From positions 17,072-81,071 of the forward strand of contig JAFPVR010000091.1 of the NCBI GenBank assembly GCA_017395245.1: 64,000 nucleotides of DNA, written 5' to 3'. Of the stretch, positions 5,295 through 30,169 are shown piece after piece (position 1 is the stretch's first letter; each line of letters starts with the position of its first letter). This DNA is from Bacteroidales bacterium. Lineage in GTDB: Bacteria > Bacteroidota > Bacteroidia > Bacteroidales > WCHB1-69. Below the pieces are notes generated by a model. That model saw only the letters and a program-made list of their open reading frames with translations. It was not told the DNA's origin and made no database searches. Made by a program: the position numbers and the translations under genes.

Positions 5295-5313
5295 TTAGTA
5301 GCGGGGGCAGGAC
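5295..5313. repeat. att core, distal copy (TTAGTAGCGGGGGCAGGAC)
   Basis: Identical to 50258-50276, which covers the 3' end of tRNA-Met. Confidence 0.85.
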
Positions 5314-11747: not shown

Positions 11748-14700
11748 ATGATCACCAAGGAAACCATAGACGCCATCAAGTACCACGCCGACATCGTCAG
11801 TGTGGCAAACGGCCTCGGACTGAACCTGAAAAAACAAGGCCGCCTTTATGCCGCCGTGTGCCCGTTTCATGACGACCACGACCCGTCGCTGAAAATAAAC
11901 CCGCAGACCGGCAGTTACAACTGCTACGTATGTGGCGCACACGGCGACGTGTTCGACCTGGTGATGAAGCTCCGCAACTGCGACTTCATCGAGGCCGCCA
12001 AAGAGCTGGCCAGACAGTACGGCGTGGAAATCCGGGATGACCGTAAGCCGCAGGATCCGGAAAGGGAACAGCGCAGGAAATCCTACGAGGAAGCAATGAA
12101 GGTAGCCACGGAATGGTTTCAGGAACAATTATGGGCGTTTATGGAACAACCTGCGTCCCCGCAGGTTGATAAGGAACCGGCCGCCGAAGGTGTAGAGACG
12201 CAAAATGTTGCGTCTCCAAAGAACCGACGCTCGGAGGCGTCGGCTCCTACACCTCTCGATTATGCCCTTGACCGCTTCAAGGAAGAGACCCTGAAGGCCT
12301 GGCAGATCGGCTACGCGCCTGAGGGGTGGAGCGGTCTCAAAGACCACCTCCGCAGCAAGGGCGTGGATGAAGCCATGGCCATTGAGCTCGGACTGCTGAA
12401 GCGCAACGAGAAAGGAAGCGTGTATGACATTTTCCGAGGACGGCTCATGTTCCCGATCCGCGACGTAAGAGGGAAGGTCATCGCCTTCTCCGGGCGCGAC
12501 CTCACGGGAGCCGCAGCCGAAAAGAAGACCGGAAAGTATGTGAACAGTCCGGAAACGCCACTCTACAAGAAATCCATGACTCTGATGGGCCTCGACGTTG
12601 CGCTGCCCGCCATCCGCAAGTACGACGTGTGCGTGTTGGTGGAAGGCAACGCCGACGTCATCCACATGCACCAGATCGGTGTCCACAATGTGGTGGCCGC
12701 CTGCGGAACCGCCCTCACCGACGGGCACATCGAGCAGATAAGCCGGTTCACCCAAAACATCGCACTGCTCTACGACAGCGACACCGCAGGACGCAACGCG
12801 GCCGAACGGTCTGCCCAGCTCATCACCGACAAAGGGCTGAACGCCATCATCCTAACCATCCCCGACGACGAAAACGGTCTCAAGCAGGATCCTGACACTT
12901 TTTTCAAAAGCACCGCCCAGTTCAAGGAGTTCTACAATTCCTACAAAAAGAGCTACTGGACACTGTTGGCGGAGATGAAGGCGGAGAACTGTGAAAACGA
13001 CGAGATGTACCGCGCCCGAACCATGAAGGAAATCGCCAGTCTTTTCTACAAACGCGGTGACAGCGAGACGGCCACCATCGTGGACGAACTTTCGAAAATC
13101 ATCGGCAAGAAAGCGGTCTGGAACAAGACCATCAAGGAACTGAAGGACGGCGACCGGGAGAAGGAGCGCGAAAAAGCCTACAACGAACGCAGCGCGGAAC
13201 AAAACGAGATGTTCACCAAGTACGGTTTCTACGTTCGCGATCACTGCTACTGGTTTCACTCCCTCAAGGGCGAGGGTATGTTCCAGGGCAGCAACTTCGA
13301 TCTGAAGCCATTGTTCCATATCGAGAGCACCGTGAACGCCAAGCGGCTTTACGAAATCACCAACACCTACGGCGTCACCAAGGTGCTGGAGTTTCCACAG
13401 AAAGACCTCATATCACTGTCGGCGTTCAAGCTTCGGTGCGAGAGCCTCGGCAACTTCCTCTTCGACGGCGGCGAAACCGGCCTGGCCAAGATCAAACAGT
13501 ACCTCTACGAGAAGACCGAGAGCTGCAAGGAAATCACCCAGCTCGGATGGCAGAAGGAGGGTTTCTTCGCCTGGAGCAACGGCATTGTGAGCGACGGCGA
13601 GTTCAAGCCGGTGGACAACCATGGAATAGCACGACACGACGATGAAAACTACTACATTCCAGCACTTTCTTCATTCTATGCAAAGGATGAGACACTCTTC
13701 CAATTCGAGCGCAAGTTTAGGCACAACCCCGACAGCTGCCGTCCGATGAACGAATGGTGGATCCTGTTCTCGACGGTTTATGGGGTCAACGCCGTTGCCG
13801 GACTCGGATTCTATGCGGCCACACTCTTCAAAGACCATATCCGTACCCGTGAAGGCTTTTTCCCAATCTATAACATCTTCGGTGTTAAAGGATCCGGAAA
13901 GTCGGAGATGGCGCAAAGTCTGCTTCAGCTGTTCGGTTCTTTGCCGAAAGGCATCAACATGACAACCTCCACCTTACCCGCGATGGCCGACCATGTGTCG
14001 CAGACTGCCAACGCCCTCTGCCACATCGACGAATACAAGAACTCCGTAGAGTATGAGAAAGTGGAGTTCCTGAAAGGGTTGTGGGACAACGTTGGCCGCA
14101 GCCGCATGAATATGGATAAGGATAAAAAGAAGGAGATGACCGCTGTGGATTGTGGCGTGATGCTCACCGGACAGGAGATGCCCACCGCCGATATCGCACT
14201 CTTCAGCCGCGTTATCTTCACGCGCTTCAGCAAGACAGGGTTCAGCGAGGAAGAACGTGCTCTGTTCAATCGATTGAAGGAAATGGAGAAACAGGGACTC
14301 ACCTGCATCACCAATGAAATTGTATCACGACGAAAGGAATTCATCGAGCGGTATGAGGCCAACCGAGACCCGGTGTATGAGGATATGGCGCGGACGGTGG
14401 ACAAAAGCCGTTTCGAAGACCGCATCTGGCGCAACTGGGCCATAATGGTATGTGCAGTCAGATCGCTGCTCGATCTTTTCCGGATTGACCTTAGCTATAC
14501 CTACGCCCTCAAGGAGATGTGCAAGATGATGGAGGAGCAGCAGAAGGAGACCCTAAAGGAGAACGAGACCGCCGTGTTCTGGAACAAGTTCTCGTTCCTG
14601 GCCAGCGACATGCAGATAGAGGAAGGATACGACTATGTGCTGCAGTGGCGCAACGATCTGAAGACCGACAGGATTAACATGAACGGGGACACGGCAAAAG

Positions 14701-15008
14701 CCATTCACGTGCTGGCCATCGACACCAAACGCATTTTCCCGCTCTATCTCAAACGTTGTCGCGACGACGGTGTGAAGCCGCTGCCAGAACCATCCATGAT
14801 GTTCTACCTGAAGAACTCCCCAGAATTTCTCGGCGTATGGCCAAAGAAGGTGAAACTGCGCACCGACCGTATGCAAGGAGACAAAATACACAACGACATT
14901 GACAAGGGGATTATGATTAAGACCGTTAAAAAAGATCTGTTGGCTTTCGATTATGAGAAACTACATCTCGAAATTGATACTGAATGGGATTATGTAACTG
15001 AACTATAA
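11748..15008 (+). CDS. Bifunctional DNA primase (CHC2 zinc finger + TOPRIM) fused to a P-loop NTPase/helicase-like domain
   Basis: Zinc finger CPFHDDHDPSLKINPQTGSYNCYVCGAHGDVFDLV. TOPRIM VLVEGNADVIHMH...LYDSDTAGRNAA. Walker A FGVKGSGKSE and a later HIDEY. Confidence 0.9.
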   Translation: MITKETIDAIKYHADIVSVANGLGLNLKKQGRLYAAVCPFHDDHDPSLKINPQTGSYNCYVCGAHGDVFDLVMKLRNCDFIEAAKELARQYGVEIRDDRKPQDPEREQRRKSYEEAMKVATEWFQEQLWAFMEQPASPQVDKEPAAEGVETQNVASPKNRRSEASAPTPLDYALDRFKEETLKAWQIGYAPEGWSGLKDHLRSKGVDEAMAIELGLLKRNEKGSVYDIFRGRLMFPIRDVRGKVIAFSGRDLTGAAAEKKTGKYVNSPETPLYKKSMTLMGLDVALPAIRKYDVCVLVEGNADVIHMHQIGVHNVVAACGTALTDGHIEQISRFTQNIALLYDSDTAGRNAAERSAQLITDKGLNAIILTIPDDENGLKQDPDTFFKSTAQFKEFYNSYKKSYWTLLAEMKAENCENDEMYRARTMKEIASLFYKRGDSETATIVDELSKIIGKKAVWNKTIKELKDGDREKEREKAYNERSAEQNEMFTKYGFYVRDHCYWFHSLKGEGMFQGSNFDLKPLFHIESTVNAKRLYEITNTYGVTKVLEFPQKDLISLSAFKLRCESLGNFLFDGGETGLAKIKQYLYEKTESCKEITQLGWQKEGFFAWSNGIVSDGEFKPVDNHGIARHDDENYYIPALSSFYAKDETLFQFERKFRHNPDSCRPMNEWWILFSTVYGVNAVAGLGFYAATLFKDHIRTREGFFPIYNIFGVKGSGKSEMAQSLLQLFGSLPKGINMTTSTLPAMADHVSQTANALCHIDEYKNSVEYEKVEFLKGLWDNVGRSRMNMDKDKKKEMTAVDCGVMLTGQEMPTADIALFSRVIFTRFSKTGFSEEERALFNRLKEMEKQGLTCITNEIVSRRKEFIERYEANRDPVYEDMARTVDKSRFEDRIWRNWAIMVCAVRSLLDLFRIDLSYTYALKEMCKMMEEQQKETLKENETAVFWNKFSFLASDMQIEEGYDYVLQWRNDLKTDRINMNGDTAKAIHVLAIDTKRIFPLYLKRCRDDGVKPLPEPSMMFYLKNSPEFLGVWPKKVKLRTDRMQGDKIHNDIDKGIMIKTVKKDLLAFDYEKLHLEIDTEWDYVTEL
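12192..12217. repeat. REP-like palindrome copy 2, inside the primase CDS (in frame)
   Basis: GTAGAGACGCAAAATGTTGCGTCTCC, translated as ..GVETQNVASPK.. Confidence 0.8.
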
Positions 15009-15010
15009 CT

Positions 15011-15314
15011 CCGGTTCTAAAAGTTCCGACCAAAGCAACCCTGCAGACCCGCCTTATCTGGCGGGCTTTTTTTTGCCCGGGATGGAATGTTAGAAAAAAA
15101 ATCAAAAACTTTCCAGCAAAAAACGGCCCGAACTTTTCGAACCATTAGAACCGTTTATAAATCAGCGAATTAAATAAAAAACAGGCTCCGAACTTTTCCG
15201 AACTTTTAGAACCACCAGAACCTTTCCGAACCGCTTTCGAACCAGTTTTTTCTATTCATGGCATTGAATATCAGTGATTTAATTTTTGGTTCAGTCGGTT
15301 CGAAAAGTTCGGAG
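15011..15314. repeat. Iteron cluster (CCGAACTTTTCGAACC and GAACC half-sites in both orientations), a candidate replication origin
   Basis: Copies at 15012-15029, 15129-15144, 15188-15214 and 15298-15313, plus at least 5 extra (A/C)GAACC half-sites. Confidence 0.5.
15048..15074 (+). terminator. Rho-independent terminator after the primase gene
   Basis: CCCGCC-ttatct-GGCGGG followed by a T8 run. Confidence 0.7.
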
Positions 15315-15448
15315 GAAAATATCCCCTCTCGGAAATAATCAGAAAATTTTTCCGACGAAAAAAAATACCAACACTTAAACTTTTACTTCAAGTAATACGC
15401 GCAACAATCCATAAAATTGTTATCTTTGCCGAACTAAACGAGGCTTCG

Positions 15449-15476
15449 ATAACCTATAACCCATAACCCATAACCA
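15449..15476 (+). repeat. ATAACCN heptad array A (4 units)
   Basis: ATAACCT ATAACCC ATAACCC ATAACCA, ending 8 nt before GTG 15485. Confidence 0.9.
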
Positions 15477-15484
15477 TTACAACA

Positions 15485-16072
15485 GTGGAGTGCTACAGCG
15501 TTGACATGAGAGTGGATTCGTTGGTGAAGCGGTGGATGGACCGCAACTTCAAGACCGACCACGGACGCTACCGCTTCGGCGACAGTTGCTACTATGGCCT
15601 GGTGAGTGCCATGCTGTGCCAGTCGCCGAGGGTGGGCAACCCCGCTGTGGTCCCCGACAAATACGCCCGCTTCGTGCCGGTGAAAGTCTGCATAACCGAA
15701 TACGACTTCTACCATTACGGCTGGGAAGTGAGCATCACTCAGGAGCTCCGCTTTTCCCGCCTGGTGCGCAACATTCTCATAGACGAATGCCTGCGTAGCG
15801 CGGCCATGCTCCGCGCACGTTACGACATTCCCCTGTCGCAGGCCATCAACAGCTTCACCGTCTGGTACGGTCTCACCGATGACGACGTGAATCCCGACAC
15901 CCTTCGCAAGACGTACCAGCGCAAATACAAGTCCGTGGAAGAGGACTACCGTGCCTTCGACCGTGCCGCCGTCACCGACTTCGGCAGGTTGGATGCCGAT
16001 CCGCCTCAGCGGCATCTGCGCTTGCACAAATCCCGGTACCGGGATCCTCACCATTTGAATCTTTCCTTTTAA
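15485..16072 (+). CDS. Hypothetical protein (GTG start; alternative ATG at 15506)
   Basis: ORF. A TATCTTTG -7 box lies at 15421-15428. Confidence 0.5.
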   Translation: MECYSVDMRVDSLVKRWMDRNFKTDHGRYRFGDSCYYGLVSAMLCQSPRVGNPAVVPDKYARFVPVKVCITEYDFYHYGWEVSITQELRFSRLVRNILIDECLRSAAMLRARYDIPLSQAINSFTVWYGLTDDDVNPDTLRKTYQRKYKSVEEDYRAFDRAAVTDFGRLDADPPQRHLRLHKSRYRDPHHLNLSF

Positions 16073-16094
16073 TAACCAATACAACAAACTGAAT

Positions 16095-16544
16095 ATGAAA
16101 GATATAAAAAGAGCATGTTATATTGATAAGAAACCAGGAATCAGCAGACTTTGGTACGTCTCCGTGGAGGAGGTGCAGTCGTTGGCCTTCACTGCCGAGG
16201 ACACCGTCTCCGTCACCCTGAAGCCCGGCGGCCGGTGGGGCGAAATCCACGGCAAGCGCACTACCGCCGCCAGCGACTGGGACCGCCGATTCGACAACCG
16301 CATCCAGACCACGCTTCCCGGTTGGACGATGCAGGACGCCGTAGGCATCGGCCGTCTCGTCCATGGCCGCTACTTGGTGAAATGGACCGACCATGCTGGC
16401 GACACCCGGCTGTGCGGCTACGGCGAGCCGCTGCATTTGGCCATTGCGCAGACCGCACCCGAGACCCCTGCGGAATACCAGGGCATCATGCTCACCTTCA
16501 GTTGCGAGAGCGAGTTCGGTTTTCTGAAATTAGTTGAAATTTGA
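16095..16544 (+). CDS. Hypothetical protein
   Basis: ORF only. Confidence 0.5.
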   Translation: MKDIKRACYIDKKPGISRLWYVSVEEVQSLAFTAEDTVSVTLKPGGRWGEIHGKRTTAASDWDRRFDNRIQTTLPGWTMQDAVGIGRLVHGRYLVKWTDHAGDTRLCGYGEPLHLAIAQTAPETPAEYQGIMLTFSCESEFGFLKLVEI

Positions 16545-16563
16545 AATTTTCAACTACCAACAA

Positions 16564-16614
16564 ATCAGCGTCTTGCATTGTCCCAACAGTTTTTCGCGCC
16601 CCGTAGTATTTTTG
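16564..16614 (+). promoter_or_regulatory. Phage promoter motif copy 1 (ATCAGCGTCTTGCATTGTCCCAAC-N19-TATTTTTG)
   Basis: Shares a 24-bp identical block with 22866-22889, at a fixed 19-nt distance from the -7 box. Confidence 0.55.
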
Positions 16615-16636
16615 CGGCCGAAAAACTTTACAGACG

Positions 16637-17728
16637 ATGACAAGACAATTTCTGAATATCACCCAGCTCTCGGCCAACAAGGCCCGTATCGAAATCGACG
16701 GCACCATCGGCGGCTTCGACTGGGACACCTGGAAACGGAAGAACACCGGCGCCGGCATCCGGAAGCAGCTCAAGGAGATCGACAACCTGAAGGTTGACGA
16801 GATCGAGGTGCTCATCACCTCTTTGGGGGGCATCGTGGATGAAGCGTTGCAGATCCACGACGCGCTGAAATCGCATCCGGCCAAAATAACCACTATCGTG
16901 CAAGGTTACTGCGCCAGCTCGGCCACCATCATTGCCTGTGCCGGCGACCGTCGCATCATCTCCCCCAACGCTTTGTATCTCATCCACAAGTGTTGGAGCA
17001 ACGTTGGGTACGCCAACGAAAATGACCTGGAAGCGGAGTTAGACGATCAGCGCACCGTTAACGGCACGATCTTCAACATCTACAAAGGGGTGCTGAAGAA
17101 AGACGAGGCCGACCTCCGCGCCCTGTTCGAAGCCAACGACGGCGACGGCAAGTGGATCACCGCCGAGGATGCCCTGGCTTTTGGCTTCGCCACCGAGATC
17201 CAGGAATTCGAGAACGAGAACAAAAAAACGGCAAGTGGAATGGCGCGGTTCCTGAACCGCGCCCGCGTCCTCTTCCCGGTTGTGAACAATATCCCTAACT
17301 ATAACCAAAACCCCACCGACATGAAGAAATTCCTGATGAGTTTCGCCATGCTGGGCGCACTCCTTTGCATGAAGGAGGATGCCGAGTATGACGAAAAGGA
17401 AGGTCTGAAGCTCAATCCCGAGCAGCTGCAGACCGTGGAGGATGCCTTGAAGGCCTACGATGGCCTCAAGACGAAAGCCTCCAAGACAGAGAGCGATCTT
17501 CAAGGCGCGAAGGATGCCTTGGCCACCGCCGAGAAATCCGTCGCAGACAAAGACGCCCTCATTGCCACCCTCACCGCCGAGCGCGACGACTACAAGGCCA
17601 AGTACGAGAACGCCCCCGCCAATGTGCCGGGCGTGAACGGAAAGGATGTGGAGCTGGATGAACAATCCATCGAGGACTACGTCAACAACAGTCCTGTGTA
17701 TCAAGAAATTTTCAAAGAAAACTTCTAA
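16637..17728 (+). CDS. ClpP-like (S14) prohead protease fused to a coiled-coil scaffold-like C-terminal region
   Basis: VLITSLGGIVDEALQIHDAL...GYCASSATIIACAGD...LYLIHKCW. Confidence 0.8.
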   Translation: MTRQFLNITQLSANKARIEIDGTIGGFDWDTWKRKNTGAGIRKQLKEIDNLKVDEIEVLITSLGGIVDEALQIHDALKSHPAKITTIVQGYCASSATIIACAGDRRIISPNALYLIHKCWSNVGYANENDLEAELDDQRTVNGTIFNIYKGVLKKDEADLRALFEANDGDGKWITAEDALAFGFATEIQEFENENKKTASGMARFLNRARVLFPVVNNIPNYNQNPTDMKKFLMSFAMLGALLCMKEDAEYDEKEGLKLNPEQLQTVEDALKAYDGLKTKASKTESDLQGAKDALATAEKSVADKDALIATLTAERDDYKAKYENAPANVPGVNGKDVELDEQSIEDYVNNSPVYQEIFKENF

Positions 17729-17731
17729 GCC

Positions 17732-18826
17732 ATGCCCGAAACCAACATAAACACTGATCTTATCGTAGAAGAATACGGTCGGATCTATCAGCAGAGAGGT
17801 CAGGGGCTCGACCGCATCAAACGCGCCCTGATCCAAAAGTCCGAGACTCTTGAAAAATATGCCATCCACAAGAGAATCACCGACGACATCTATGAGATGG
17901 CCAACGACGAGTTCCAGCCGGTGCTCCAGCCGTTCCGTGTCCCCTTCGAACCGACCGGCGGTGTGAAGTTCTACCCGAACCCCATCGTGCTCCAGCACAT
18001 CAAGGTGGATCTCAAGATTTCCCCCGACCAAATCATCGACGGTTGGCTCGGCTTCCTTGAAGGCAAAGGGGTCGATCGTTCCCAGTGGCCCATCACCCGT
18101 TATATGGTCGAAGTCTATCTGAAGCAGCAGATTGACTACGACCGTGAGGTGAACGCCGTTTACTACGGCGAGCGCGACGACAACGGAACCTCTCCGTCTT
18201 CCTGCATGGACGGCATCCGCAAGAAGCTCATCTTGGGTGCGCAGGACGACTATCCCATCAACGTCATCGATGGTGTCGGTGCGCTTCAGCCGGACACCTG
18301 CTTCGACCAAGTGGAGAATTTCTCCAAGAAGATCAAAGCCATCTATCGCGGCGTTCCGATGATCATCTGCGTATCTCAGGAATACGAACGCGCCTTCCTC
18401 GAGAACAAGCGTGCCAACGGTTTCTACTGGCTGCACGGTCCCGAGGATCTCAACGCCTCCGTCGATTTCACCAAGCAGGTGGTCATGGGCCTTCCGTGCA
18501 TGGACGACAGCACGGACATGTTCGCGTTTGTCAGAGGCAACCTCATGTGGTTGACCCGCAAGGACAAGTTCAACTTCGACATCCAGAAAGAAGACCGCTA
18601 CGTCAAAATCCTCGGCGACTGGCGCGAGGGTATCGGCTTCGGCGTGAACAAGATGGTGTGGGCCACCAAAGAGACTGTCACGACAACGACCTCCGGCGAC
18701 GGCCAAGGTAGCGGTCAAGGTAACGGCCAAGGCAACGACCAAGGTAACGGCCAAGGCGACGACTCTGGCGAAACCCAAGGCGACGACTCTGGCGAAACCC
18801 AAGGCGACGACCAGAACAACGGCTAA
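17732..18826 (+). CDS. Putative major capsid protein with a G/Q/D/N-rich repetitive C-terminal tail
   Basis: Position immediately after the protease/scaffold gene. 364 aa. C-terminus SGDGQGSGQGNGQGNDQGNGQGDDSGETQGDDSGETQGDDQNNG. Confidence 0.6.
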   Translation: MPETNINTDLIVEEYGRIYQQRGQGLDRIKRALIQKSETLEKYAIHKRITDDIYEMANDEFQPVLQPFRVPFEPTGGVKFYPNPIVLQHIKVDLKISPDQIIDGWLGFLEGKGVDRSQWPITRYMVEVYLKQQIDYDREVNAVYYGERDDNGTSPSSCMDGIRKKLILGAQDDYPINVIDGVGALQPDTCFDQVENFSKKIKAIYRGVPMIICVSQEYERAFLENKRANGFYWLHGPEDLNASVDFTKQVVMGLPCMDDSTDMFAFVRGNLMWLTRKDKFNFDIQKEDRYVKILGDWREGIGFGVNKMVWATKETVTTTTSGDGQGSGQGNGQGNDQGNGQGDDSGETQGDDSGETQGDDQNNG

Positions 18827-18828
18827 GC

Positions 18829-18884
18829 ACAGGGAACGGGCGCGGGGTGATGGCATATCCGTTGCACCGCGCCGCCCTGTTTTC
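18829..18884 (+). terminator. GC-rich hairpin plus T-run after the capsid gene
   Basis: ACAGGGAACGGGCGCGG...CCGCGCCGCCCTGTTTT. Confidence 0.55.
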
Positions 18885-18922
18885 AATCATTCATTATTCA
18901 ATCACTTAAAAACTGAAAAATC

Positions 18923-19534: not shown

Positions 19535-19587
19535 CCACGTTTTTTTTCTCTCTCAACCATATTGGTAATAGTATTTCATTTGTTTGG

Positions 19588-19618
19588 AAAGAGCTTCCTC
19601 TCCCGGGAAGCTCTTTTT
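19588..19618 (+). terminator. Rho-independent terminator
   Basis: AAAGAGCTTCC-loop-GGAAGCTCTTT followed by TT. Confidence 0.6.
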
Positions 19619-19640
19619 CGAACGGCAATCAACTCCTGAC

Positions 19641-20507
19641 ATGAACGATATACAACAATGGCTCGACAATCCCGGCCACGACTACTCCGCCGGCGTCACC
19701 CTCTTCGCCCGTTACAGCAAGAACAGGGCGCTGGTGCGCTATTTCCAATCCGGAACCGCCCGGTTCCGGATGGGGAAACTGGTTTACGAGATGGGGAAAC
19801 TGGTGAAGACGACACCATCGGCGAAACGCATCGTAGAGACGCAAAATTTTGCGTCTCTACAACCACAGCAATCGGAACGGCCTCGTGTAACATCCGAGGT
19901 TACTTCCGAGGTTACTTCCGAGGTTACTTCCGAGGTTACTTCCGAGGTTTCTCTTCCGAGGTTTATCCTCGATGCCAAGAAGGAGGTGGCCTCCCTCTAC
20001 ACCCTCATCGACAAACGGCACCGGGAACTGTACGACCTGGGCACCTCCAATGCCGATGACGTGGTGCGCAAACGGAAGAAGATCCTCGACGGGCGCAAGC
20101 CCGCCATCGATCGTGCCGACCGCCTCTACCGACTGAAGGAGGCGTGGATCAAGCTGGAAGACGGCCCCGCCCGGGAACGGGTGGCCAGCGATATCCGGGA
20201 GTTGCTGGCCGCACCATGGAAGGAGCAGCCGACGATGGTCGCACCCGTAGAGACGCGCCATGGCACGTCTCTACGATCCGACGTGTCCGGGTTGTCCGAC
20301 CTTAACCTCACCAATCGCCGCTCCGCCCTCCGTTCCTCCATCACCAAGGCTCAGAACATGCTGCAGTACCAGACCATCCGCAAGGGAGACTCCCCTACCC
20401 CGATGCCGCCCGGACCGAAACGCGACGAGTATGAACGGAAACTGGCCGCGCTGAAGGCGGAGCTGACAGCCGTGTGTGACGAGCTGGAAAGGAGGAAACC
20501 GGCATGA
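19641..20507 (+). CDS. Hypothetical protein carrying two REP palindromes and two tandem repeats in frame
   Basis: ATG at 19641. The peptide contains IVETQNFASLQ, (TSEV)x5 and PVETRHGTSLR. Confidence 0.5.
   Translation: MNDIQQWLDNPGHDYSAGVTLFARYSKNRALVRYFQSGTARFRMGKLVYEMGKLVKTTPSAKRIVETQNFASLQPQQSERPRVTSEVTSEVTSEVTSEVTSEVSLPRFILDAKKEVASLYTLIDKRHRELYDLGTSNADDVVRKRKKILDGRKPAIDRADRLYRLKEAWIKLEDGPARERVASDIRELLAAPWKEQPTMVAPVETRHGTSLRSDVSGLSDLNLTNRRSALRSSITKAQNMLQYQTIRKGDSPTPMPPGPKRDEYERKLAALKAELTAVCDELERRKPA
19833..19860. repeat. REP-like palindrome copy 3 (perfect 28-bp GTAGAGACGCAAAATTTTGCGTCTCTAC)
   Basis: Read directly in the sequence; lies inside a CDS. Confidence 0.9.
19893..19966. repeat. 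12-bp tandem repeat (TCCGAGGTTACT) x5-6
   Basis: Encodes the TSEV repeats. Confidence 0.9.
20247..20274. repeat. REP-like palindrome copy 4 (GTAGAGACGCGCCATGGCACGTCTCTAC)
   Basis: Inside a CDS. It is the reverse complement of copy 5. Confidence 0.9.
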
Positions 20508-21103: not shown

Positions 21104-21106
21104 TCT

Positions 21107-22825: not shown

Positions 22826-22865
22826 AATCCGCAAATTTGCGCCTGTACAAAATTCCATATTGATT

Positions 22866-22916
22866 ATCAGCGTCTTGCATTGTCCCAACGGGTTTCTTCG
22901 TGTGGTTGTACTTTTG
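22866..22916 (+). promoter_or_regulatory. Phage promoter motif copy 2 (ATCAGCGTCTTGCATTGTCCCAAC-N19-TACTTTTG)
   Basis: See copy 1. Confidence 0.55.
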
Positions 22917-22944
22917 CCGCAAAAAACTACACGAAGCGACAAAT

Positions 22945-23568
22945 ATGACAAACGATGCGTTGAACCTCGGACTGCTGCCGGTGGATGAAACCGGTGCTTA
23001 CAACCTGCCAGTGGTGGGTACTGATGCCGTGCCAACTGCAGACAGCCTCATTCCGTTCAACCGGGCGAAGACCTGCCTGAGACGGGATGTGGGCGTACAC
23101 TTCTTCATCGATGACTACCAGTTCGAGCGGGTGTGGAAATCTCCGCAGCTCTATGTGGAGATGCTGAAGCGGTACCGTTTTGTCTGCGCCCCGGATTTCA
23201 GTCTCTACTTGGACATGCCGATGGCGGCCAAGATTTGGAACGTCTATCGCAGCCGCCTTATCACTGCCTACTGGCAGAAGCAGGGGGTGAAGGTGGTGCC
23301 CGTGTTGCAGTGGGCGGATCCTGCCACGTGGGAGTTCTGCTTTAAGGGCGTTACGCCAGGTGGAACGGTGGCTGTGAGCACATTAGGTGCGGCTCGCAAC
23401 AAACTGACCAAACAGATCTGGAAATCGGGGATGTCGGAGGCCATCCAGAAACTGCGTCCTGCCGCCATACTCCTGTATGGCAGACCTATCAACTTCAATT
23501 TTGGAAATATCCATGTTGTATGTTACACTAACGAGGTGTTGGAAAGGAGGTCTGGTCATGGGCGGTAG
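22945..23568 (+). CDS. DUF4417-like protein
   Basis: VHFFIDDYQFERVWKSPQLYVEMLKRYRFVCAPDFSLYLDMPMAAKIWNVYRSRLITAYWQKQGVKVVP. Confidence 0.6.
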   Translation: MTNDALNLGLLPVDETGAYNLPVVGTDAVPTADSLIPFNRAKTCLRRDVGVHFFIDDYQFERVWKSPQLYVEMLKRYRFVCAPDFSLYLDMPMAAKIWNVYRSRLITAYWQKQGVKVVPVLQWADPATWEFCFKGVTPGGTVAVSTLGAARNKLTKQIWKSGMSEAIQKLRPAAILLYGRPINFNFGNIHVVCYTNEVLERRSGHGR

Positions 23569-24034
23569 AGGTGGATATTTGGGCGGGTCGAGTTCTGGTA
23601 CAGGAGACTCTTCAATTGGCTTCAAAAAGACATACGAAAGTGATAACGGAGGCACCGTTTATACGGAAAAATCAAGAATTGAGCAATCCAATATAAACAA
23701 GCAGGAAAAAGCCAAATATGAAAAGGAGCATGATATGTGCAAACATTTGGCTGACAATGGGCATGATATAGTTCATCTTGATGACAGAAATCTATCGGAA
23801 GGCTCATACGATATATTGCTCGATGGAGAAAAGGCGGAGTTGAAGAGTATGAAAGGTACAACGAATATAGGCAGGGAAGGCAAAGATGCTATACGTAAAC
23901 AAAAGGCCGATTTTGTAGTGTTTAAATTCGAGAGCTTTTCTGCAAAAACAAATAGAGAAATCGAAAAATTAGTAAAGAACAACATACATGGATGCTATTA
24001 TGTTGAGGGGCAAAAAGGATTGGAATGGTTTTAA
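23558..24034 (+). CDS. Putative PD-(D/E)XK-like nuclease with a Gly-rich N-terminus (low GC)
   Basis: ...HDIVHLDD...YDILLDGEKAELKS... fits a D-x(n)-E-x-K arrangement. GGAAAGGAGG lies upstream of the ATG. Confidence 0.35.
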   Translation: MGGRGGYLGGSSSGTGDSSIGFKKTYESDNGGTVYTEKSRIEQSNINKQEKAKYEKEHDMCKHLADNGHDIVHLDDRNLSEGSYDILLDGEKAELKSMKGTTNIGREGKDAIRKQKADFVVFKFESFSAKTNREIEKLVKNNIHGCYYVEGQKGLEWF

Positions 24035-24162
24035 AATCAAGAAATCCCTGCTACAGCAAGGATTCCAGGGTGGTCCTTCCCCCGCTCAAGGCGAGTTGTA
24101 ATGAACCCTTCCGCGAAAACGGAATCGCGGCAAAAATACAAAAATTCTGAAAACCAATAAAT

Positions 24163-24546
24163 ATGGAATTGGAAATCGAACTAAAAAGCAAATACATGAA
24201 TCGCTTCAAACAGGAGTTTAACCGTGCCTGCCTGCAAATAGGGATTCCAGCATTGAGCGAGGATACCTGTGCCAAAATATTGGCGGTGGTATATCTCCAC
24301 GACAACGAGCAGTTCGCGTTCAGCGGCGCATTTGCTGCTGATATGGAGTACATTCAGAACCGCTATCACATACATGGCGCTGGAACACCGGAGGCCGACT
24401 TTGTGGACAAGGTGGTGCGTTACATCCACGAGCTGGAGGAATATGCCAGAACGCATGTGGAGGAATCCACGCAAAACGGTCTGTTCCCTGCCAAGCCACA
24501 ATGGGCAATCGAGATGTTTAGAAATATGTACGGAATAAGAATATAA
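24163..24546 (+). CDS. Hypothetical protein (low-GC island)
   Basis: ORF only. Confidence 0.45.
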   Translation: MELEIELKSKYMNRFKQEFNRACLQIGIPALSEDTCAKILAVVYLHDNEQFAFSGAFAADMEYIQNRYHIHGAGTPEADFVDKVVRYIHELEEYARTHVEESTQNGLFPAKPQWAIEMFRNMYGIRI

Positions 24547-24549
24547 GTC

Positions 24550-24900
24550 ATGGGCAGGAAAGAATACTCTTCGTGGTTTCGATGGACAGAGGAACGCTTG
24601 CGTTTTCTATATGAAAACTTTGCCAGTAATTCCAACCAAAGCATCGCGGACGCACTAGGCTGCAAAAAAAAATGCGTCATCGATAAGGCTCACAAATTGA
24701 GGTTGAAAAAGGACAATGATTATTTAGTCATGGCTCATGCACATGCTGGAATCCGTTATGGAATAAAGGGATGTAATCTTTCGGAAGATGCATTGTCCAG
24801 AAGAAAACAAACCAGGCAGAAAACCGTACATATTGAAAAAATAAGATTAAAATACGGTATTCATCAAAGGACAAATCTCAAATTAAAAAACATTTACTGA
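24550..24900 (+). CDS. Putative HTH DNA-binding protein (low-GC island)
   Basis: WTEERLRFLYENFASNSNQSIADALGCKKKCVIDKAHKLRL looks like a Myb/GcrA-type HTH. Confidence 0.4.
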   Translation: MGRKEYSSWFRWTEERLRFLYENFASNSNQSIADALGCKKKCVIDKAHKLRLKKDNDYLVMAHAHAGIRYGIKGCNLSEDALSRRKQTRQKTVHIEKIRLKYGIHQRTNLKLKNIY

Positions 24901-24901
24901 T

Positions 24902-25783
24902 ATGATTTACGGATATTTGCGTGTGTCGTCCGACGAGCAGGACGTAAACAGCCAGAAGCAGGGCGTTGAGGCTTTCGCGAAGGAGCATGGATGGACTATT
25001 GACGAATACATCTCTGATGAAGGCGTTAGCGGTGGCAAAGATCCCGACAAACGGAATCTCGGTCCGTTGCTGAAGAAATTGAAAAACAATGATGTTCTTA
25101 TTGCAGCAGAGATCAGCCGTTTGGGTCGTGACCTGTACATGGTAATGGACATCCTGCACTTCTGCATGGAGCGCGGCTGTGTAATCCACACTGTCAAAGA
25201 TCGATTCACATTGGGGGATGATATCCAGAGCAAAGTACTTGCTTTTGCTTTCGGATTGGCCGCTGAGATTGAACGTCAGATGATTCGTCAACGCACTCGT
25301 GAAGGTTTGAGATTAAGAATGAAAATGGGAGTACTGTTAGGTCGTCCTATTGGTTCTCCGAACAGTTTGGAAGCACAAAAATACGGTGAATGGAAGGACA
25401 AACTTAAACAAATGGTGGAATGGCAGATGGGACCGAGGCAAATAGCTAATGTTATTGGGTGTGACAGGAACACGGTGAACCGTCTTGTTGAAAGATGGGG
25501 TTACGACGAGCTGTGGAAATATAGAGCCAATTATGCCAAAAACGAAAAAGAGTATAGGGCTAAGCACCGTGTTCCAACGTACAAAGACGAACCTTATAAG
25601 ATAGTGCCGTTAGACCGAAAAAAGACAATTACTTGCATAGAAGCAGGCTTAACATTGCCGCAAATCGCAGAGCAAATGCCTGAGTTCTCGTATGAGCAGG
25701 TATATGATACGGTTCTTTGTGACAGTGAATTAAACACTCTCTATCGCCAGCACGCTCAAAAGAAGCTGGTGAAGAAGAAGTAA
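24902..25783 (+). CDS. Serine recombinase (resolvase/invertase family) with an extended C-terminus
   Basis: MIYGYLRVSSDEQ (catalytic Ser), ...ISRLGRD..., ...ERQMIRQRTREGL..., and HTH RQIANVIGCDRNTVNRL. Confidence 0.85.
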   Translation: MIYGYLRVSSDEQDVNSQKQGVEAFAKEHGWTIDEYISDEGVSGGKDPDKRNLGPLLKKLKNNDVLIAAEISRLGRDLYMVMDILHFCMERGCVIHTVKDRFTLGDDIQSKVLAFAFGLAAEIERQMIRQRTREGLRLRMKMGVLLGRPIGSPNSLEAQKYGEWKDKLKQMVEWQMGPRQIANVIGCDRNTVNRLVERWGYDELWKYRANYAKNEKEYRAKHRVPTYKDEPYKIVPLDRKKTITCIEAGLTLPQIAEQMPEFSYEQVYDTVLCDSELNTLYRQHAQKKLVKKK

Positions 25784-25967
25784 TCCCGCCCCACCCTCAT
25801 AGGGCCACCCCCTGTCATATTTCCTACCCGACCCGGGGTGGAAATTTCCATCCAAAGTAGGGCGAGCACCGGCACGATTGTCGCTCGACGCCTTTCGGAA
25901 AAAGTTGATTTTGGGTCAAAACGTTGAATTTTAGGAAAATGCGAAAAATTTCATGTTAAGAAATTCG

Positions 25968-26003
25968 TGTCCCATCTCGTTATGTGCGCCCGTTGTATTT
26001 TTG
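25968..26003 (+). promoter_or_regulatory. Phage promoter motif copy 3 (TGTCCCATC-N19-TATTTTTG)
   Basis: Same spacing as copies 1, 2 and 4. Confidence 0.5.
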
Positions 26004-26019
26004 CCGGAAATTCAAGGAT

Positions 26020-26298
26020 ATGGAACAGACAATCACCCGCGCCGACGTGCTGGCCGAGATGGAAAAACGGGAAACCGCCGACAACCGCCACCGCTACTTC
26101 GCCATCCAGTTCTACAAACAGAACGGCGAGTTAGTGACGCTTCCCCGTGCCCGCAGCTGCGGCCTCCGCATGGACATGACCGAAAACCGGATGCGCGGTG
26201 TGCAGCAGGTAGATGAGTTCGGCAACGCCGTCGGCCACATCTATCCCGTCTGTATCGACAATATCCGCACGTTCAACAATGTACGAGTAAAGATATAA
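26020..26298 (+). CDS. Hypothetical protein
   Basis: ORF; ATG at 26020. Confidence 0.5.
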   Translation: MEQTITRADVLAEMEKRETADNRHRYFAIQFYKQNGELVTLPRARSCGLRMDMTENRMRGVQQVDEFGNAVGHIYPVCIDNIRTFNNVRVKI

Positions 26299-26301
26299 GC
26301 T

Positions 26302-27627
26302 ATGGATATCCTATTCAACAAAGCAGGTGAACCCTTGGTGTTTTTCGGCAAAAGCGTCTTTGGCAGCACTACCACAAAGAACACGGTTAAGGAGACTGTG
26401 GAAGAGACTTTCTCGTTCCGGAAGCGCGAGTATGCCGTCTGGGGCGACACCAACTGTTTCCCGGATGACGCCGAGAAGACCATCCGCACTACCAGCGTGC
26501 TGCAGACCGGCCTAAACTACAAGGCCCGCTGCTGCTATGGTCAGGGTGTTGTGCCGGTGAGAGTGACGGGCTTTGACCAAGGCAACAACGAAATCTTCGA
26601 ACCAGTGCGCGACAAAGAGGTGCTCCATCACCTGCGCGGCCTCTCCTTCCGCAACTTCCACACCGCCTCCTTCCGCGACTTAATCAAGTTCGGGAACGCC
26701 TTCCCGCTGCTGGTCTTCAACAACGCCGGCGACAAAATCGTGCGCGTGCAGATCCTCAACGCCCGCCACTGCCGCCTCAGCGTTGACAAGACCAAGTTGT
26801 TAGTCTTCGGTGACTTCAAGCACTCCTCCCCTACGGATGATGCGAAGACGGAGGTCTATGACATGCTCAGCGAGGAGGATCCGTTCTACGACCTCCAATG
26901 GCGACGCGAGACTGGCAAGCTCAAAGGTATGGCCGCCATCGCCTTCCCGCGCCTCAAGAACTACTTCAGCAACAACGACTACTACGCCGCTCCTGACTGG
27001 CAGTCGGCACAGGAGAGCGGCTGGATCGACATCGCCCACAAGATTCCCGAGTTCCTGAACCGCGCTTACGAGAACGCCATGCACCTGATGTGGCACGTGC
27101 AGATTCCCCACACCTACTGGGAGAAAAAGTTCCCGAAATCCGAGTACAAGAATGTGGAGGAGCGCAAGAAACTTATCCAGGACTATATGGACAACTTCGA
27201 GCATGAGTTGACCGACACCAAGAATGCCAACAAGTCGCTATGGACTCAGTACTACATCGATGAGAGCGGTCGCGTCAACGGCGAGTGGAAGATTACCCGC
27301 CTCGATAGCGAAATCAAGACCGACGACCGACTGAGCATGTCGGCGGCGGCCAACAGTGAGATCCTCTTCTCATTGATGGTGAACCCCAGCACGTTAGGTG
27401 CCGGAATGCCCGGAGGCCCATACAGCGGCAACGCCGGCAGCGGCTCTGATATCCGCGAAGGACTCCTTGTTTCCTTGATACTCAGCCACATCGAAAAGCA
27501 GGCCGTACTGGATCCTGTGGTGCTCATGTACGAGTTCAACGGCATCCACGACATCGAGCTCAAATACCGCAACATCACCCTGACCACCCTCGACAGCGGC
27601 AGAAACACCCAGGAATCATTAACCTAA
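26302..27627 (+). CDS. Putative portal protein
   Basis: Size (441 aa) and position in the head module. No motif certainty. Confidence 0.5.
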   Translation: MDILFNKAGEPLVFFGKSVFGSTTTKNTVKETVEETFSFRKREYAVWGDTNCFPDDAEKTIRTTSVLQTGLNYKARCCYGQGVVPVRVTGFDQGNNEIFEPVRDKEVLHHLRGLSFRNFHTASFRDLIKFGNAFPLLVFNNAGDKIVRVQILNARHCRLSVDKTKLLVFGDFKHSSPTDDAKTEVYDMLSEEDPFYDLQWRRETGKLKGMAAIAFPRLKNYFSNNDYYAAPDWQSAQESGWIDIAHKIPEFLNRAYENAMHLMWHVQIPHTYWEKKFPKSEYKNVEERKKLIQDYMDNFEHELTDTKNANKSLWTQYYIDESGRVNGEWKITRLDSEIKTDDRLSMSAAANSEILFSLMVNPSTLGAGMPGGPYSGNAGSGSDIREGLLVSLILSHIEKQAVLDPVVLMYEFNGIHDIELKYRNITLTTLDSGRNTQESLT

Positions 27628-27632
27628 CGACA

Positions 27633-28100
27633 ATGGAACCGAAATTATTCACATCCCAATTGAATGAGTACGCGGAGGAATTCAAGAGATATCTTCCCGT
27701 GAATATCAATCTGCGGTTCGAGACCGTGGCATCGCCACTGGCACTGTGCGAGGAAACATACCTCCGTCCGCTGTTTGGCAAAGCATTGTTCAACCGCATG
27801 GCCACCTACGTGAAAGACCACCCCACGCTGGACAGTGGAGATTCTGATTGCACCCTCATCGAAAAGACACGGTTCGCCCTCATCCGGTTAGCCGTCTGGA
27901 AAGACTACGACATCATTGCGGCCAACATCAGCGACACCGGTGTCTCTGCAGAGGTGGACAAAGAAAACCGCCTCTTCCGCTATCAGGAGGAGAACCTTAA
28001 ACGTGCCCTCAAGGAGGAAGGCTTTAACTATCTGGACAACATCCTGGAATTCCTTGAAGAAAATTCCCAAGAATTTCCGGAGTTCGAGCAGTCGGGATAG
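27633..28100 (+). CDS. Hypothetical head-completion/connector protein
   Basis: Position only. Confidence 0.4.
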   Translation: MEPKLFTSQLNEYAEEFKRYLPVNINLRFETVASPLALCEETYLRPLFGKALFNRMATYVKDHPTLDSGDSDCTLIEKTRFALIRLAVWKDYDIIAANISDTGVSAEVDKENRLFRYQEENLKRALKEEGFNYLDNILEFLEENSQEFPEFEQSG

Positions 28101-28625
28101 GTGTTGGAAAGCTCACAGTTGCTAATCCGTAACACCCGGATGTTCAACACCTATTATAATATAGACAACAGCCGCTTAGTGTTCCTGAAGATGCGTCACT
28201 ACATCCGCGATGTGGAACTTATCGAGCTGCAGCACCGCATCGGCAGGGAGTTCTACCAGGAGCTGCTCACCGCCGATGAGAGCCTGCCGAAGTACGAGGC
28301 CATCCTTTCGTACATCCGCAATTACATCGTGTATGCCTCCGTGGCCGAAGGCATCGGCGAGCTGCACAAGATGCCCACCGATAAAGGCTTGCTGTTCGAG
28401 ACCACCACTATGGACGGTGTGCAGGAGGCTCCGGTCTATCGTGCCCAGATTGCGGAAACCCGCCTTCGTTTCGCCCAGCGTGCCGAACAGTACCTGGCCA
28501 CCGCCCTCCACATCATCCGGAACGCGCCTGCAGACTATCCCGCATACGTCGGTTTCGCTGGCGACAGCCCTGAAGACGGCATTATCCACCGCGACAACAC
28601 CAACCGCAAAATCTTCCTCGCCTGA
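28101..28625 (+). CDS. Hypothetical head-completion/connector protein (GTG start; alternative ATG at 28140)
   Basis: Position only. Confidence 0.4.
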   Translation: MLESSQLLIRNTRMFNTYYNIDNSRLVFLKMRHYIRDVELIELQHRIGREFYQELLTADESLPKYEAILSYIRNYIVYASVAEGIGELHKMPTDKGLLFETTTMDGVQEAPVYRAQIAETRLRFAQRAEQYLATALHIIRNAPADYPAYVGFAGDSPEDGIIHRDNTNRKIFLA

Positions 28626-28628
28626 TCT

Positions 28629-28656
28629 ATAACCAATAACCAATAACCCATAACCT
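28629..28656 (+). repeat. ATAACCN heptad array B (4 units)
   Basis: ATAACCA ATAACCA ATAACCC ATAACCT, ending 6 nt before ATG 28663. Confidence 0.9.
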
Positions 28657-28662
28657 TTGATC

Positions 28663-29013
28663 ATGGACATCGTAACATTAATCGGCTACCTTATCACTCC
28701 GCTCACCGGGGCAATAGGCTGGATCTTCGGTCGCCGCCAGCGCCGGAATACCGCCATCCAGTCCCTGCAGAAAACCATCCAACTGCTCTCCAACACCATC
28801 CAAGACGACAATCAGAAGATTGTTAGCCTTATGAATGAAATTCAGGAGGTGCGCCGCGAGAATGCCGAACTCAAAGCCGGACAGAAGGAGCTGCTGGGCC
28901 AGATAGAGGCACTGAAAAGTGAGAACCGGGAGCTTAACGAACTTATCAGGGCAAACGGCATCAAGAAAGTGAAGCCCGCAATGCGGAAGGATTGGAAAGG
29001 AGACGCAGAATGA
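28663..29013 (+). CDS. Membrane-anchored coiled-coil protein (possible holin or lysis accessory protein)
   Basis: N-terminal TM IVTLIGYLITPLTGAIGWIF followed by heptad-rich sequence. Directly upstream of the endolysin. Confidence 0.35.
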   Translation: MDIVTLIGYLITPLTGAIGWIFGRRQRRNTAIQSLQKTIQLLSNTIQDDNQKIVSLMNEIQEVRRENAELKAGQKELLGQIEALKSENRELNELIRANGIKKVKPAMRKDWKGDAE

Positions 29014-29678
29014 ACGTAATCCGACACAATTTCCCCGCCACGCAATATGTGTGTGAGCGCACCGAGAAACGGCAGATCGTTCTTCATCACACCGCCAGTG
29101 GTCCGGGCGTGGACGGCGATATTGCCTGGTGGATGAAAACCCCGGAGCGGGTGGCCACCCACTTCATCGTCGATCGAGAGGGCAAGGTTCACCAACTCTT
29201 CGATGAGGAGTTCTGGGGCTACCACCTCGGACTGGCTCAGAAGGTCTTCACCCAGATGAAGCTGCCCTACAAGCAGCTCGACCGTCAGAGCATCGGCATT
29301 GAGATCGACAGCTGGGGTTATCTGGAACCGCACACCGACGGCCAGTTCTATCCGGCCAAGTGGAATGGCAGCCGCAGCGTGCCCAATACCGCCGCCAAGC
29401 CGGTGAAGTACTTCTACGAGTACTGCTCCAACCAAAAATGGAAGGGCCACCGCTACTACGAAAAGTACACCACCGCCCAGATCAATGCCGTGCGCGACCT
29501 GGTGCGCGAGCTGTGTACCCGTCACAACATCCCGAAGACCTACAATCCGGATATGTGGGAACTGTCAAAACGTGCCCTCACCGGCACGCCCGGCATCTTC
29601 GCCCACTGCTCCTACCGCACCGACAAAAGCGATATCCACCCGCAACCCGAAATGATTGACATGTTGAAGGCCTTATGA
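29010..29678 (+). CDS. N-acetylmuramoyl-L-alanine amidase (endolysin, Amidase_2/PGRP type)
   Basis: IVLHHTASG...THFIVDREGKVHQL...SIGIEIDSWG. Confidence 0.85.
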   Translation: MNVIRHNFPATQYVCERTEKRQIVLHHTASGPGVDGDIAWWMKTPERVATHFIVDREGKVHQLFDEEFWGYHLGLAQKVFTQMKLPYKQLDRQSIGIEIDSWGYLEPHTDGQFYPAKWNGSRSVPNTAAKPVKYFYEYCSNQKWKGHRYYEKYTTAQINAVRDLVRELCTRHNIPKTYNPDMWELSKRALTGTPGIFAHCSYRTDKSDIHPQPEMIDMLKAL

Positions 29679-30145
29679 CATCAAGCCAATATTACCAGTA
29701 CATTGAAGGCCTCGCCCGCTCACACAAGATGGTGAGGCACTCCGACACCGACAAACACTTCTTCCGGGGCGAGCTGGAGGAGTTCTATATGGATCTGCGC
29801 AACAAGGTGAAGTTCCCCGCCATGATTGCTGAAAGCTGGGAGATCACGTTCCAGGAGGAAAACAAGAAGCGCGAAACCTCCTTCATCATCGCGGCAGCAT
29901 ACAAGGAGAGTAAGAACTGGGGCAACATCTACGCTGCTATCGACCTCTGCGAGCGCATCGGCGATGAGTTCCTGCGCCGTATCATCGCCGATGTCGATGA
30001 GGGCAAGTTCTGCGGCGACGTGGAACTGATGTCGGCCATCCCCATGGTGGATGAACAGCACCTCTATGCCGGTGTGCGCTACACCATCCAGATGTCGTGC
30101 CCGTTCCGTCCTGACCCGGATAAGGATGAATGGACGGATCTGTAG
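29675..30145 (+). CDS. Hypothetical structural protein
   Basis: ORF. Its stop codon lies inside REP copy 5. Confidence 0.45.
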   Translation: MTSSQYYQYIEGLARSHKMVRHSDTDKHFFRGELEEFYMDLRNKVKFPAMIAESWEITFQEENKKRETSFIIAAAYKESKNWGNIYAAIDLCERIGDEFLRRIIADVDEGKFCGDVELMSAIPMVDEQHLYAGVRYTIQMSCPFRPDPDKDEWTDL

Positions 30146-30169
30146 AGACGTGCCATGGCGCGTCTCTAC
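30142..30169. repeat. REP-like palindrome copy 5 (GTAGAGACGTGCCATGGCGCGTCTCTAC)
   Basis: Supplies the TAG stop (30143-30145) of the upstream CDS. Confidence 0.9.

Follow-up and report, generated by a model that had tools for sequence, protein, structure and literature searches.

Here we describe a short palindrome that is repeated in a 64-kb stretch of DNA from a Bacteroidales bacterium (contig JAFPVR010000091.1 of assembly GCA_017395245.1, positions 17,072 to 81,071; the whole stretch is hereafter called the window), in which it occurs both in host DNA and in a resident prophage. The palindrome is a 'double-foot' GTAG-type repetitive extragenic palindromic (REP) element of 28 nt with a 12-bp stem, a 4-nt loop, a GTAG foot at the 5′ end and a CTAC foot at the 3′ end, and its sequence assigns it to the REP family of subclass 2.4 of the tyrosine transposases associated with REPs (RAYTs, or TnpAREP). 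We propose that the element is non-autonomous and that a chromosomal RAYT of the HUH/Y1 type would, on single-stranded DNA (ssDNA), recognize the hairpin together with its GTAG foot and copy or exchange it, thereby causing the gains and swaps that we infer for this prophage. Copies would persist where harm is slight: after stop codons in intergenic host DNA, at gene junctions of the compact phage genome and, within genes, in disordered linkers only, with a net change that is a multiple of three and with the TAG frame avoided. At fixed sites, one 28-bp REP would have been replaced repeatedly by another of the same length. Taken as a whole, we hold this explanation to be very probable.

The pattern GTAGAGACG-N10-CGTCTCTAC is present in seven copies in the window, as a preliminary description of this DNA had reported. 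Four are exact and start at 4046, 19833, 20247 and 30142; three are near-copies with one or two mismatches in the arms. The number of exact matches expected by chance is 0.00 (100 dinucleotide-preserving shuffles of the window). The near-copy at 56000 has CCAC as its 3′ foot and the one at 63782 has GCAG as its 5′ foot, whereas the near-copy at 12192 (GTAGAGACGCAAAATGTTGCGTCTCCAA) has two arm mismatches and one loop mismatch and has lost its 3′ foot; four of the seven copies have both feet intact (5′ GTAG, 3′ CTAC). Folded as ssDNA, each copy forms a hairpin in which a 9–13-bp stem carries a loop of 4 nt, with energies of −10 to −14 kcal/mol and z from −4.3 to −7.8. The commonest loop, CAAAATTTTG, is found in host and prophage copies alike (19833, 56000 and 63782). 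The loop is CACGGCTGTG at 4046, CAAAATGTTG at 12192, CGCCATGGCA at 20247 and TGCCATGGCG at 30142, the last two copies being exact reverse complements of each other, as had been noted.

The earlier division into three host and four prophage copies is correct when judged by the bounds of the prophage (approximately 5295–50276, 45 kb), which are set by a 19-bp direct repeat, TTAGTAGCGGGGGCAGGAC, at 5295 and 50258. The density is thus 4 copies in 45 kb of prophage versus 3 in around 34 kb of host DNA, the latter including around 15 kb of extra flank (from loci L120 and L212) without a further copy. The host copy at 4046 begins 2 nt past the stop codon of a DUF2795 gene (3822–4043, plus strand); the copy at 56000 is flanked by two minus-strand genes, for an AAA_35 ATPase and an AMP-binding enzyme; and the copy at 63782 lies around 10 bp 3′ of the RsfS stop codon and 76 bp 5′ of the ftsH start. 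All seven copies are singletons, and the closest pair (19833 and 20247) is 414 bp apart, in separate protein linkers. A REPIN, that is, two inverted REPs with a short conserved spacer, was ruled out, as the window copies are all single. Intrinsic (rho-independent) terminators were also ruled out: in the flanks of the seven copies, reading on from the upstream gene, none of the hairpins is followed by a T-run, and three copies are translated through. An Rfam scan gave no family for the palindrome and matched only two tRNAs.

That the palindrome is of the REP type, as first proposed, is borne out by published catalogues. The 28-mer GTAGAGACGCACGGCCGTGCGTCTCTAC, with a 12-bp stem, is listed for the RAYT ACL24330.1 of Chloroflexus aggregans, and BAM00060.1 and ACL24704.1 are listed with sister 28-mers of a G-type, GTAGGGGCG..CGCCCCTAC (Quentin et al. 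2018, supplement 2, PMC6006769). REPs of subclass 2.4, which is equivalent to Bertels group 4 (PMC5581495), have a double foot (5′ GT[AG]G and 3′ C[TC]AC), and the tnpAREP genes of this subclass carry in-frame REP insertions (Quentin et al. 2018, PMC6006769). The element described here resembles these REPs (PMC6006769) in its length of 28 nt, its GTAGAGACG arms, 12-bp stem, 4-nt loop and GTAG and CTAC feet, in its spread over Bacteroidetes, Cyanobacteria, Chloroflexi and scattered other phyla, and in its adjacency to RAYT genes, with in-frame copies within them (loci L053 and L077, below). Unlike the published members of subclass 2.4, it is found here in a temperate phage and in the proteins of that phage, with no RAYT nearby. 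The sequence of the window palindrome is not among the supplements of Di Nocera et al. 2013 (PMC3733652), and a literature search with the bare 9-mer returned primer noise only.

We scanned a genome collection, one genome per species, for the same arms. At least 119 loci have them, and Bacteroidota, Nostocales and other Cyanobacteria, Anaerolineae, Acidobacteriota and Ignavibacteria are all represented. Among the matches listed there were also Spirochaetales, Planctomycetes, Zixibacteria, Desulfuromonas and others; the phyla include Chloroflexota, and many of the cyanobacterial matches are Nostocales. The small dispersed repeats (SDR) of Nostocaceae, described by Elhai and colleagues in 2008, are reportedly mobile inverted-repeat modules of 21–27 nt that also land inside genes. 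With its arms in many phyla and catalogued for subclass 2.4, the palindrome is not peculiar to this host, contrary to what had been supposed. A cyanobacterial origin of the window was rejected, HIP1 (GCGATCGC) being absent from it.

The ten inner bases occur in more than 50 variants, yet remain palindromic. In 243 distinct copies, pairs 10–19, 11–18 and 12–17 are complementary in 89%, 96% and 97% of cases, respectively, and the 12-bp stem with its 4-nt loop is therefore held by covariation. Flanking bias is weak (T or C at −1 in 72%, A or G at +1 in 77%). Most copies outside the window lie outside long open reading frames (ORFs) (206 of 248; 85% of the 124 genomic and 81% of the 124 viral copies).

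The Y1 (RAYT) transposase that had been suggested as the associated enzyme is indeed found next to the element in other genomes. Among the matches listed, 5 of the 119 loci, which were picked by the palindrome alone, contain a RAYT-like ORF with the motifs NH[FL]H, WQ and YIxNNP (L012, L034, L053, L070 and L077). The palindrome lies no more than 100 bp from this ORF or in frame within it; in L053 and L077 it is inside the ORF and is translated as VETHGRASLQ. Three of the five ORFs were scanned against the NCBIfam model REP_Tyr_transpos (NF047646) and all three match (E values of 1e-15 to 1e-18), with 58–67 bits, under the equivalog cut-off of 80 of the model, and Pfam Y1_Tnp weakly matches all five (18–23 bits). 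In 0.9 Mb of genomic loci there are five RAYT-like ORFs, versus none in 2.5 Mb of phage and prophage DNA. IMG/VR, scanned completely, yielded no more than 116 stretches with the pattern, and among 80 viral loci with a related primase (1.27 Mb) a REP copy is present in the two closest relatives only. Given these few phage copies and the lack of RAYTs in phage DNA, the phage copies are non-autonomous passengers, limited to a phage clade with hosts that possess this REP system.

Two of the prophage copies, at 19833 (S1) and 20247 (S2), lie in ORF 19641–20507. The AlphaFold model of its product (38 homologues) has a predicted local distance difference test (pLDDT) score of less than 50 only at amino acids 59–102 and 196–212, which are the two REP sites. 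PHROGs and Pfam gave no family for this ORF or for ORF 29675–30145. The peptides that had been read from the copies, VETQNFASLQ and VETRHGTSLR here and GVETQNVASPK in the primase, are those given by translation. In at least 60 of 110 homologues from other assemblies, VET....SL or VGA....PL is intact within these two linkers, in many cases at the same residue, and other homologues have REPs at different offsets in these linkers. The proposal that the resident prophage itself acquired these copies is contradicted by many orthologues that carry VETQNFASL or VETRHGTSL at the same positions, an outcome that had been named in advance as refuting it; S1 and S2 were therefore inherited within the phage lineage and, judging from these alignments, appear to be old residents of a lineage of Bacteroidales temperate phages.

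The REPs at these two sites vary among orthologues. At S1, the 28 bp are GTAGAGACGCAAAATTTTGCGTCTCTAC in the window and in L340, and GTAGGGGCGAATGATTATTCGCCCCTAC, of the GTAGGGGCG type, in L128 and L333. At S2, the CGCCATGGCA variant is found in the window and in L128, a G-type REP in L127 and L340, and an A-type variant, GTAGAGACACACGGCCGTGTGTCTCTGC, in L341 (1100–1130, P0035). The last has a compensated change at the ninth stem pair, from G-C to A-T, which gives the arms GTAGAGACA..TGTCTCTGC and is a direct case of covariation at one orthologous site. In L125 and L333, S2 is occupied by an unrelated palindrome that is 6 bp longer. Across S2, the window and L340 are identical at 24 of 25 positions in the 5′ flank, at 16 of 28 in the REP and at 30 of 36 in the 3′ flank. 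Repeated independent insertion at the same nucleotide is unlikely because the flank preference is weak, and it seems more plausible from these comparisons that one REP took the place of another or that very short cassettes were exchanged.

The unrelated palindrome at S2, CTGCGTCCCCGCAG...CTGCGGGAC(A/G)CAG, which codes for EASASPQMQGKQLRDAV, is present in L125 (10560–10620), L333 and several orthologues, and may be another small mobile hairpin family. Directly after the REP at S1, a 12-bp tandem repeat, TCCGAGGTTACT (5.8 copies, 19893–19963), codes for (TSEV)n in linker 1; it is lacking or has another copy number in most orthologues (for example, P0003). The identity of L128 to the window rises from 81% to 95% at S1 (19811–19965), and that of L125 drops from 95% to 84% at the REP site of the primase (12172–12246). 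The idea that REPs are mosaic breakpoints was rejected, as it comes down to two anecdotal coincidences at these coordinates in the comparisons with L125, L127 and L128.

The decayed copy at 12192 lies within the prophage primase, in the linker between the Zn-ribbon (amino acids 3–98) and the catalytic core (amino acids 171–284). Primase orthologues were taken from the members of a 90% cluster plus L125 and L333; a protein search with the N-terminal part was swamped by cellular DnaG at 35–42% identity. The cluster contains primases of 1,086 and of 1,063 amino acids, and the shorter alleles, which are 94–98% identical, lack exactly EPAAEGVETQNVASPKNRRSEAS. In the DNA, the site without the insert reads GATAAAAAACCA|ACACCTCTCG. 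The 69-bp insert comprises 12 nt, then the decayed REP, then a second, unrelated hairpin, CCGACGCTCGGAGGCGTCGG (12224–12243), which is unique in the window. In the predicted fold, an outer pairing of GGTGTAG...CTACACC closes both hairpins. The insert is most simply read as a REP into the 3′ arm of which a further 31 nt later became nested. The only direct repeat at the indel is an imperfect AA[AG]GAACCG.

The copy at 30142 supplies the TAG stop codon of ORF 29675–30145, as stated previously, the TAG being within the GTAG foot. In the nearest viral relatives (82% identical protein) there is no REP and the two flanking genes overlap by ATGA. In more distant relatives the protein ends in ..WSDLQ*, whereas the window protein runs to ..WTDL, after which comes the REP with its stop codon. 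The primase copy and this copy appear to be more recent gains, as shown in part by their absence from close relatives, and the copy at 30142 carries the same asymmetric variant as the copy at 20247, in inverted orientation. The original suggestion of a colonization of the prophage is overstated as regards recency, these two copies alone being missing from close relatives.

Every intragenic copy had been described as preserving the reading frame, with selection for frame-preserving insertion as one explanation. The in-frame reading holds. Frame-selective insertion does not: the element is open in two of its three frames, as GTA GAG ACG (VET..) and as xGT AGA GAC (.RD.., that is, CRD), with TAG in the third, and both open frames are used elsewhere. 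Of 248 copies outside the window, 42 lie within long ORFs, where 13 are read as CRD, 26 are read as VET and 3 are open in both frames, and 29 contribute the TAG that ends an ORF of 100 codons or more. Because two of three frames are open and both are used among these copies, frame preservation is survivorship: an outcome of selection and no property of insertion. All REPs in the family of ORF 19641–20507 are in the VET frame, but a bias towards this frame was rejected as not significant elsewhere (CRD:VET of 13:26). The copies in the primase and in ORF 19641–20507 are placed where an insert of ten residues is harmless.

Such behaviour has precedents. The ORF upstream of a GTAG REP often takes its TAG stop from the REP, and REPs are found in frame inside genes, many of them for replication and repair (Di Nocera et al. 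2013, PMC3733652); the element, its in-frame presence and TAG donation are thus already known. As in that GTAG super-family (PMC3733652), the copies here have a GTAG terminus, lie just downstream of ORFs, donate TAG codons and occur in frame in a replication gene, in this case a primase. The survey covered 24 families, mostly with a single foot and from Proteobacteria, and did not consider phages, whereas the REPs described here are double-footed and phage-borne.

In Pseudomonas, 'REP deserts' coincide with prophages and islands (Loper et al. 2012, PMC3390384). REPs and REPINs are held to be passed on almost only vertically, with RAYTs absent from mobile agents (Bertels and Rainey; PMC3116915, bioRxiv 2021.07.10.451892). 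The REPIN–RAYT systems of Pseudomonas and Escherichia coli are likewise short hairpin repeats, which depend on a single-copy, non-jumping Y1 transposase, and their RAYTs are off mobile elements, as in the phage DNA searched here; unlike REPINs, the units in the window are single palindromes. Unlike REP deserts and vertically inherited REPs, this prophage holds REPs at approximately host density, and related phages also carry them. The view that RAYTs are absent from mobile agents thus holds here, whereas the view that REPs are transmitted only vertically is weakened.

Several observations weigh against our explanation. Neither the window nor the around 15 kb of extra host flank, which together make up the host sequence searched, contains a RAYT gene, and RAYT-driven mobilization in this host is thus a matter of deduction. 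The database scores of the RAYT-like ORFs elsewhere fall short of the cut-off, as given above. A unit of 28 bp is no multiple of three, which leaves the origin of in-frame insertions unexplained. No clean filled and empty pair differing by 28 or 30 bp occurs among the 110 homologues of ORF 19641–20507, the linkers of which differ as whole cassettes, so the approximately 28–30-bp insertion with a target duplication, for which a check by alignment had been proposed, is not seen there. In the primase an insertion is seen, but it is a 69-bp composite with an imperfect repeat only. Finally, some phage copies are decaying (that at 12192 and the S1 copy of L125), which fits relics as well as active elements.

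A serious, partial alternative, which we nonetheless consider less likely than not, is that the phage copies are inherited fossils that have been shuffled by homologous recombination of linker cassettes, with no RAYT movement into or within the prophage. S1 and S2 are common to dozens of orthologues from other assemblies, as this would predict, but distinct REP families at identical 28-bp coordinates would still require replacement or re-insertion. The linkers are mosaic, with breaks in BLAST identity at 19811–19965 and 12172–12246, and some copies have decayed; however, the block in the primase is absent from alleles that are 98% identical, and the copy at 30142 is absent from the nearest viral relatives and is an exact inverted form of the 20247 variant, which suggests copying within the genome. 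The lack of a RAYT in 2.5 Mb of phage and prophage DNA fits fossils well, whereas the commonest loop, CAAAATTTTG, is common to host and prophage copies, which fits them poorly.

We consider it highly improbable that the hairpins serve the phage as transcript stabilizers or attenuators, as translational pause sites at domain boundaries or as portable homology for modular recombination. The hairpins are strong and sit at domain linkers and one gene junction, but 78 of the 80 loci with a related primase have no copy, many orthologues of ORF 19641–20507 lack the REP at these sites or have it in decayed form, and the primase works without a REP in the 1,063-amino-acid alleles. Covariation does maintain the stem, and shifts in mosaic identity coincide with the two REP-bearing linkers; the element is, however, mainly intergenic in unrelated phyla. 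REPs are reported to affect mRNA stability and termination in other bacteria (PMC3733652), yet here transcription past the hairpins would meet no T-run and Rfam has no match.

A restriction-related origin, in which the unit would exist for its type IIS site, GAGACG/CGTCTC, for instance to signal recognition or avoidance to a restriction–modification system, has next to no chance of being correct, and the site is incidental: it is present within the arms, as had been pointed out, and the two orientations occur 22 and 18 times in the window, but the sister REP GTAGGGGCG..CGCCCCTAC, which has no such site, is found at the same positions in orthologous genes and is catalogued for the same RAYT subclass, and conservation spans 9–12 bp of stem plus the GTAG feet, more than the 6 bp of the site.

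An extension of the RAYT-based explanation, speculative and in our estimate unlikely, is that Bacteroidales temperate phages ferry group-4 REPs without a RAYT, and that the RAYT of each host would swap the resident hairpin for a variant of its own at the GTAG and CTAC feet. Such in situ swapping would explain the A-type, G-type and loop variants at the same 28 bp. If it were true, REPs would be horizontally transmissible, contrary to the picture of vertical inheritance and REP deserts, and there would be a REP-targeted, REP-swapping reaction. Because the group-4 arms differ little from phylum to phylum, a REP carried by a phage could meet a compatible RAYT in many hosts. A precise 28-bp swap at fixed sites would be a natural experiment that bears on the action of RAYTs on REPs. 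For annotation, the peptides VET....SL, VGA....PL and.RD....VST in proteins of Bacteroidota, Cyanobacteria and phages are REP read-through rather than protein motifs, and gene ends on ..GTAG may be made by REPs. No new class is opened by these data, as the element was already catalogued; phage carriage and REP-for-REP replacement at fixed sites are modestly new, and deserve a note rather than a headline.

The prophage also codes for a head-maturation protease and an endolysin, in addition to its DnaG-type primase (Table 1). Its right attachment repeat overlaps the 3′ end of a tRNA-Met gene (50261–50333, minus strand). Compared by megablast with the phages in GenBank, 11 kb of the prophage matched none. 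The window itself matches ENA metagenome scaffolds at 100% identity. Among NCBI proteins from metagenome-assembled genomes, the window primase is MBQ3734319 and FtsH is MBQ3734368.

Table 1 Coordinates of REP copies, the genes that carry them and prophage landmarks in the window.
Feature	Position	Strand	Context or basis
Host REP copy, exact arms, loop CACGGCTGTG	4046–4073		Between convergent genes
attL, left copy of the 19-bp repeat TTAGTAGCGGGGGCAGGAC	5295–5313	+	Direct-repeat search
Prophage DnaG-type primase fused to a large C-terminal domain, 1,086 amino acids	11748–15008	+	Pfam domains
69-bp (23-codon) primase insertion with decayed REP (12192–12219) and second hairpin	12178–12246	+
Conserved phage protein, 288 amino acids, all-helical model	19641–20507	+	One REP per disordered linker
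Prophage REP S1, perfect 28-bp palindrome, loop CAAAATTTTG, read as VETQNFASL	19833–19860
Prophage REP S2, loop CGCCATGGCA, read as VETRHGTSL	20247–20274
Prophage REP, exact reverse complement of the copy at 20247	30142–30169		TAG stop of ORF 29675–30145
Tyrosine integrase (Phage_integrase and Phage_int_SAM_5)	49018–50136	−	Adjoins attR
attR, right copy of the 19-bp repeat TTAGTAGCGGGGGCAGGAC	50258–50276	+	Overlaps tRNA-Met 3′ end
Host REP copy, 3′ foot CCAC, loop CAAAATTTTG	56000–56027		Intergenic
Host REP copy, 5′ foot GCAG, loop CAAAATTTTG	63782–63809		Intergenic

The attachment region is a variable hotspot. In other strains (L213, L215 and L216) the TonB_C gene (4815–5252 in the window) is followed by an island of methyltransferase, ATPase and helicase genes and not by the outer membrane protein gene, and in L213 a different prophage abuts the TonB_C gene. 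Just inside attL, a perfect 21-bp tandem repeat, ATTTGAGCGTCTTTTTCTTTA (3.1 copies, 5630–5694), may provide arm-type sites to which the integrase, or a repressor, would bind. Between the REPs at 56000 and 63782, the host flank has a DDE transposase of an insertion-sequence type (DUF772 and DDE_Tnp_1_2; 58031–59419, minus strand). ORF 838–2076 was set aside as spurious: it lies opposite a real ABC-transporter gene and a look-up gave no record.

Other repeats were noted in the window. The 3′ end of ORF 17732–18826, the next after the head protease gene, contains 12-bp and 24-bp tandem repeats (18699–18811) that code for a repetitive C-terminal tail. Heptamer tandem arrays (ATAACCC, ATAACCA and CAATAAC; 4–5 copies each) occur at 15449–15475, 28629–28655, 37532–37568 and 39522–39548, the last three in short gaps between prophage ORFs, as a recurrent motif of gene junctions. 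The motif GTATTTTTGC occurs 11 times versus 0.24 expected, in host and prophage DNA (3157, 4714, 6076, 11025, 16606, 24130, 25995, 31620, 50346, 57756 and 59404). It fits the −7 promoter element of Bacteroidota, TAnnTTTG, and these sites are probably promoters.

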